Source of the DNA: Methanosarcinales archaeon
GTDB lineage: Archaea > Halobacteriota > Syntropharchaeia > Alkanophagales > Methanospirareceae
DNA: 30,428 nt
NCBI GenBank assembly: GCA_025464345.1
Contig: JAODGP010000023.1
Span: 1-30,428 of the forward strand
Reading direction: 5' to 3'
Shown: positions 17,082 to 21,884 of the stretch, in pieces
How positions within the stretch are numbered: position 1 is the first letter of the stretch
Layout of the letters: the number at the start of each line of letters is the position of its first letter
Position numbers and translations under genes: made by a program
Notes under the pieces: model-generated
Seen by the model: only the letters and a program-made list of their open reading frames with translations
What the model was told of the DNA's origin: nothing
The model's database searches: none

Positions 17082-21884
<4,803 letters not shown>

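Follow-up and report, generated by a model that had tools for sequence, protein, structure and literature searches.

The window analysed here, a stretch of 30,428 nucleotides, carries an RNA polymerase (RNAP) operon in the order rpoB-rpoA'-rpoA''-L30e-NusA-S12-S7, which Pfam searches on the neighbouring genes, including a NusA-type KH protein, identified as the normal archaeal arrangement. The unsplit rpoB gene (13736..17080, + strand) encodes a protein of 1114 aa with Pfam Rpb2 domains 1-7, and the Mg-B partner YNMEDA and a further 12-residue element are readable in its translation. It is followed by rpoA' (Rpo1N; 17082..20210, + strand), encoding 1042 aa, and by rpoA'' (Rpo1C; 20207..21553, + strand), encoding 448 aa. 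Immediately upstream of rpoB, at the position expected for rpoH, lies a 79-aa ORF (13488-13727, + strand). The rpoB gene is a single ORF here, and the same holds for the sister family (G025:C27:1623-4949) and for class family f5 (G029:C3:24645-28013). In family f3, also of this class (G031:C79:14073-17415), it consists of two ORFs with a break near residue 500-513, so whether rpoB is fused or split differs within the class. It is likewise split in another family of the phylum (G040:C1:506199-509544).

The translated RpoA' contains Pfam Rpb1 domains 1-5 in order (E-values 2e-98 to 2e-27) and terminates inside Rpb1 domain 5 (profile positions 1-75 of 267), with the bridge-helix region readable at its end. 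The rest of domain 5 (positions 50-266, E 2e-53) is covered by rpoA'', and RpoA' thus has the composition of an archaeal Rpo1N, whose Rpb1 domains 1-5 are completed by a separate A'' gene. A 280-aa segment around the active site matched the solved chains of canonical archaeal Rpo1N (T. kodakarensis 4QIW/6KF3, entry 8CRO, and Sulfolobus/Saccharolobus 2PMZ and 2WAQ) with E-values of 1e-104 to 9e-125. The protein resembles these chains in the order of the Rpb1 domains, in its operon and in the pattern YNAD-x-DGDEMN, but it differs from them in carrying Tyr instead of Phe at position x and in an insertion of about 155 aa in the clamp head, which is unrelated to the motif.

Direct reading of the codons AAT GCC GAT TAT GAC GGT GAT at 18915-18935 (+ strand) and their translation gave NADYDGD at residues N612-D618 of RpoA', within a stretch of 16 residues, as the preliminary description had reported. 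This is the Mg-A aspartate loop, and its TAT codon (18924..18926, + strand) encodes Tyr615, a position held by Phe in most RNA polymerases. The Mg-A aspartates D614, D616 and D618 of the D-x-D-G-D loop are all intact, and their columns were invariant in an alignment of 38 RpoA' sequences. The motif NADFDGD has been termed 'nearly invariant' (PMC2605557) or 'invariant' (PMC4982682). Over the 11 residues of the extended consensus YNADFDGDEMN, 10 are identical here and the literal motif is not reproduced; given the wording 'nearly invariant' (PMC2605557), we took YNADFDGDEMN as a descriptive consensus, and the mismatch at Tyr615 is no bar to membership of Rpo1N. The signature of the two-barrel RNA polymerases as a whole is DbDGD, where b is a bulky residue (PMC4215175), and Tyr615 provides such a residue between the first two aspartates. 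The possibility of a second, divergent RNAP copy was also considered and rejected, as a search of the whole genome (an 89.7%-complete metagenome bin of 116 contigs) returned a single rpoA'. Since this is the sole RNAP in the genome, RpoA' with Tyr must be a working polymerase, in agreement with the earlier expectation that an enzyme with all three aspartates should be active.

We then considered whether Tyr615 is genuine. TTT and TAT differ by a single base and the sequence comes from a metagenome bin of 116 contigs, so a TTT codon could in principle have been misread as TAT through sequencing or assembly error, or TAT could be a rare polymorphism within the population; the preliminary description had noted that such an origin must be excluded. 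Six-frame extraction of RpoA' from 30 relatives revealed Tyr in 7/7 genomes of the genus, at 83-95% protein identity, with synonymous differences among them in the codons adjoining Tyr. The host family includes genomes with RpoA' identical to loci titled as ANME-1 archaea, which places the window in the methane-oxidising ANME-1 (Methanophagales) group. A pattern scan found the motif in 64 of the 68 genomes of the order, with Tyr in 55 and Phe in 9; the Tyr codons were TAT in 49 genomes and TAC in 6, and the Phe codons (n = 9) were TTT or TTC. The Tyr-bearing genomes are separate assemblies, among them the single-cell genome ANME-1 AG-394-G06. The same Tyr in separate assemblies, encoded by both codons, with independent synonymous changes nearby and in a single-cell genome, excludes sequencing error and makes inspection of the reads unneeded. 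We therefore rejected an error, whose probability is practically nil, and Tyr615 is a real and conserved feature of the lineage, as had been proposed.

The history of the site was reconstructed on an RpoA' tree of 57 rows in which the Phe/Tyr site was masked and which was rooted with six Phe-type genomes, drawn from elsewhere in the class and from a different family of the phylum. The six outgroup loci, from the remaining class and one neighbouring family, all carry Phe, and in an even sample of 401 genomes of the phylum, all of the 150 matches listed, out of 391, were Phe. Within the order, the sister family (f2) has Tyr, genera g9 and g11, which branch off first in the main family, have Phe, and the rest of the main family has Tyr, with several Phe lineages nested inside genus g3, which comprises 8 Tyr species and 6 Phe species. 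Five Phe/Tyr changes are needed within the order, at least four of them forced by strongly supported branches. This distribution, with Tyr in f2, Phe in g9 and g11, mostly Tyr elsewhere and Phe in the outgroups, dates the rise of Tyr, on the masked tree, to roughly the base of the ANME-1 order, after which the site flipped repeatedly through single A/T changes.

Phe-type and Tyr-type genomes were compared column by column over four regions, namely the N-terminus of RpoA' and its residues 312-1042, the final 250 aa of RpoB and the retrieved part of RpoA''. Apart from 615, no column of RpoA', the RpoB end or the retrieved RpoA'' part separated the two types, and none in the same four regions shifted consistently over six Phe/Tyr sister contrasts. 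Judged from these alignments, the Phe/Tyr swap within ANME-1 requires no obvious partner change in the regions compared. The earlier suggestion of a special, lineage-specific RNAP is weakened by these results, because Phe and Tyr have interchanged at least five times in the order, even within one genus, and no co-varying residue was found in the regions compared.

The preliminary description had also tied Tyr to the large insertion in the same subunit. This clamp-head insertion of about 155 aa occupies residues ~150-306 (approximately 17530..18000, + strand), with relatives aligning at residues 1-150 and 306-1041 on either side, and it lies apart from the motif variant. Genomes with the large insertion have 592-610 residues between the conserved N-terminus and the motif, those without it have 441-452, and the one genome with a partial insertion has 517. 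Both features occur together here and in 15 relatives, and on this ground Tyr might be a compensatory or co-adapted change linked to the insertion. However, among the 29 Tyr-type relatives with complete N-termini, 13 lack the insertion and one carries only part of it, about 70 aa, in addition to the 15 with the large one, and the sister family f2 has Tyr and lacks the insertion. In the RpoA' tree, the insertion-bearing genera are nested inside a clade that is already of the Tyr type. Tyr is thus independent of the insertion and, on this tree, arose before it and separately; the insertion arose within the Tyr clade, which explains why zero Phe-type genomes carry it. A link between the two, contradicted by their distribution, was rejected as highly improbable.

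The middle of the insertion (window ~17650-17970; RpoA' residues ~190-296) has copies of 30-42% identity in many unrelated open frames at other places in the genomes of relatives, e.g. in G015 (15 matches), G009, G007, G013 and G030. A different enlargement was observed in a Phe-type genome of the same family (G013:C1:45868-50265), whose RpoA' open frame of 1505 aa contains about 516 extra codons just upstream of NADFDGD, between 47259 and 48808. This extra segment is probably an intein that sits beside the conserved Cys preceding the motif. Over-long RpoA' frames were also present in G028 (1566 aa) and G032 (1489 aa).

Outside the order, a scan for NADYDGD[E/Q]M with one genome per prokaryotic species returned at least 120 matches, and the 120 listed all lie in genuine RpoC or RpoA' reading frames. 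Bacteria accounted for 92 of the 120 matches listed, mostly under the title Saccharibacteria, and the archaeal matches listed included ones from Pacearchaeota, Woesearchaeota, Micrarchaeota, a Thermoplasmata-labelled pair and the ANME-1 set, together with a 'Methanomicrobiales' MAG of only 62% identity. Among viruses, NADYDGD[E/Q]M was present in the largest-subunit genes of 45 IMG/VR contigs, many of them giant-virus MAGs, and the sequence around it was of several different kinds. In even samples scanned with the codon left free, the class around a Saccharibacteria genome gave 12 Tyr and 81 Phe (n = 93), and the class around a Pacearchaeota genome (DPANN) gave 2 Tyr and 38 Phe (n = 40). In the wild-card scans (codon NNN), no codon other than TTY or TAY was found among the 347 matches listed, and the site is accordingly limited to an aromatic residue, Phe or Tyr. 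The preliminary description had presented NADFDGD as essentially invariant and had made its reading depend on Tyr not being common across many archaeal lineages. Tyr does recur in ANME-1, Pacearchaeota/Woesearchaeota, Micrarchaeota and the Thermoplasmata-labelled group, as well as in a Saccharibacteria subclade and viruses, which largely overtakes that view, although it is outnumbered by Phe in each group sampled beyond the ANME-1 order. Judging by these counts, Phe is much the commoner residue and Tyr a recurrent minority state.

Sequence context around the motif was recorded in the same lineages. All sampled Tyr-type RpoC proteins of Saccharibacteria have Ala four residues before the Asn of the motif (PLVA-x-GF-NADYDGD), and 16/16 sampled Phe-type Saccharibacteria relatives have Cys there. 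Ala likewise occupies this position in the two Tyr forms of the DPANN class sample. ANME-1 retains the Cys (Cys608, window 18903-18905, within a stretch of 13 residues). In Saccharibacteria and DPANN, the change from Cys to Ala may, from these sequences, be an accommodating change for Tyr.

Several known enzymes carry or tolerate a change at the same position. The string NADYDGD itself was found in no paper in a full-text search of one literature library, a result that concerns the string and not the variant. The catalytic motif of wild-type Neurospora QDE-1 is 1007-DYDGD-1011, and this enzyme is active and its structure has been solved (PMC2919709, PMC4861493). QDE-1 and the cell-encoded two-barrel RdRPs, with D(Y/F/L)DGD, thus share with the present RpoA' a Tyr between the first two Mg-binding aspartates of a double-psi-barrel polymerase, but QDE-1-type RdRPs are single-chain, RNA-dependent and distantly related enzymes without the flanking NA...EMN. 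The non-virion RNAP of Bacillus phage AR9 (beta'N subunit), likewise active and of solved structure, has the wild-type motif 370-DYDGD-374 with a loop conformation like that of other RNAPs (bioRxiv 10.1101/2021.08.30.458274). It is a multisubunit DNA-dependent enzyme with Tyr at this place, but it is a highly diverged phage enzyme and not a cellular housekeeping RNAP. The RpoC of a Saccharibacteria subclade and the RpoA' of some DPANN and giant-virus MAGs are genuine largest-subunit genes with the identical seven-residue motif, although they belong to independent lineages and, unlike ANME-1 with its Cys, the Tyr forms of Saccharibacteria and both of those sampled from DPANN have Ala four residues before Asn. 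In S. pombe Pol III, Rpc1-F494L alters the same residue of YNADFDGD and the cells are viable; unlike the natural Tyr described here, it is a laboratory mutant to Leu, isolated for increased termination and read as slowed catalysis (PMC4982682). This phenotype indicates that the motif position is able to influence kinetics.

Taken together, the sequence comparisons suggest that Tyr615 is most probably a near-neutral, inherited and conservative Phe-to-Tyr variant and that it is no sign of a polymerase with a different mechanism. The repeated toggling between Phe and Tyr without co-variation makes near-neutrality the best reading. With Tyr615 in the loop, D614, D616 and D618 would still hold Mg-A, and the aromatic ring between D614 and D616 would pack the loop against the double-psi beta-barrel; we infer this packing role from the Phe/Tyr-only spectrum of the site, the definition of the signature residue as 'bulky' and the normal loop in DYDGD enzymes. 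The Tyr ring would then do the packing job of Phe, its extra hydroxyl being tolerated, and Phe and Tyr would be nearly interchangeable in ANME-1, where the site would drift by single A/T changes at the second codon base. The Mg-A loop takes shape at the interface with RpoB. When the isolated domain (residues 441-720) was modelled with AlphaFold2 from the 38-sequence alignment, the model had a mean pLDDT of 66, with values below 50 over model residues 164-179, which correspond to the motif.

Some observations point away from near-neutrality. The dominance of Tyr in the order (55/64) could reflect selection and not drift, and the Cys-to-Ala change found with Tyr in Saccharibacteria and DPANN hints that Tyr needs accommodation in other backgrounds. 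The Tyr hydroxyl might add a hydrogen bond or alter the packing under the Mg-A loop, slightly shifting elongation rate, pausing, termination or fidelity, and such adaptive tuning of kinetics might be selected for in lineages that grow slowly, are limited in energy or live in symbiosis (ANME-1, Saccharibacteria, DPANN). The S. pombe Rpc1 mutant F494L, altered at this very position yet viable and with increased termination, fits this explanation, as do the Tyr majority in the ANME-1 order and the possible accommodating change, and most of the lineages that carry Tyr are syntrophs, episymbionts or viruses. However, the substitution of Phe by Tyr is far more conservative than that of Phe by Leu, Phe has returned repeatedly inside one genus with no co-varying residue, and relaxed selection in small populations would yield the same list of lineages. 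We therefore consider adaptive tuning unlikely. A broader form of this idea appears quite unlikely. In it, Tyr would act as a 'dial' on RNAP kinetics that recurs and is open to selection, setting the speed of elongation, pausing or termination; slow-growing syntrophs (ANME-1), episymbionts (Saccharibacteria, DPANN) and large viruses would each have taken it up independently, and some backgrounds would need the change from Cys to Ala four residues before Asn.

These results indicate that the 'invariant' NADFDGD is NAD[F/Y]DGD in nature, which is a lesson for annotation and teaching. For the biology of ANME-1, a suspected oddity is removed, since the active site is ordinary and Tyr is unrelated to the clamp insertion. 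If a kinetic effect were nevertheless true, the Phe and Tyr species that occur naturally side by side in a single ANME-1 genus would provide a test set for how the scaffold of the aspartate loop tunes transcription.
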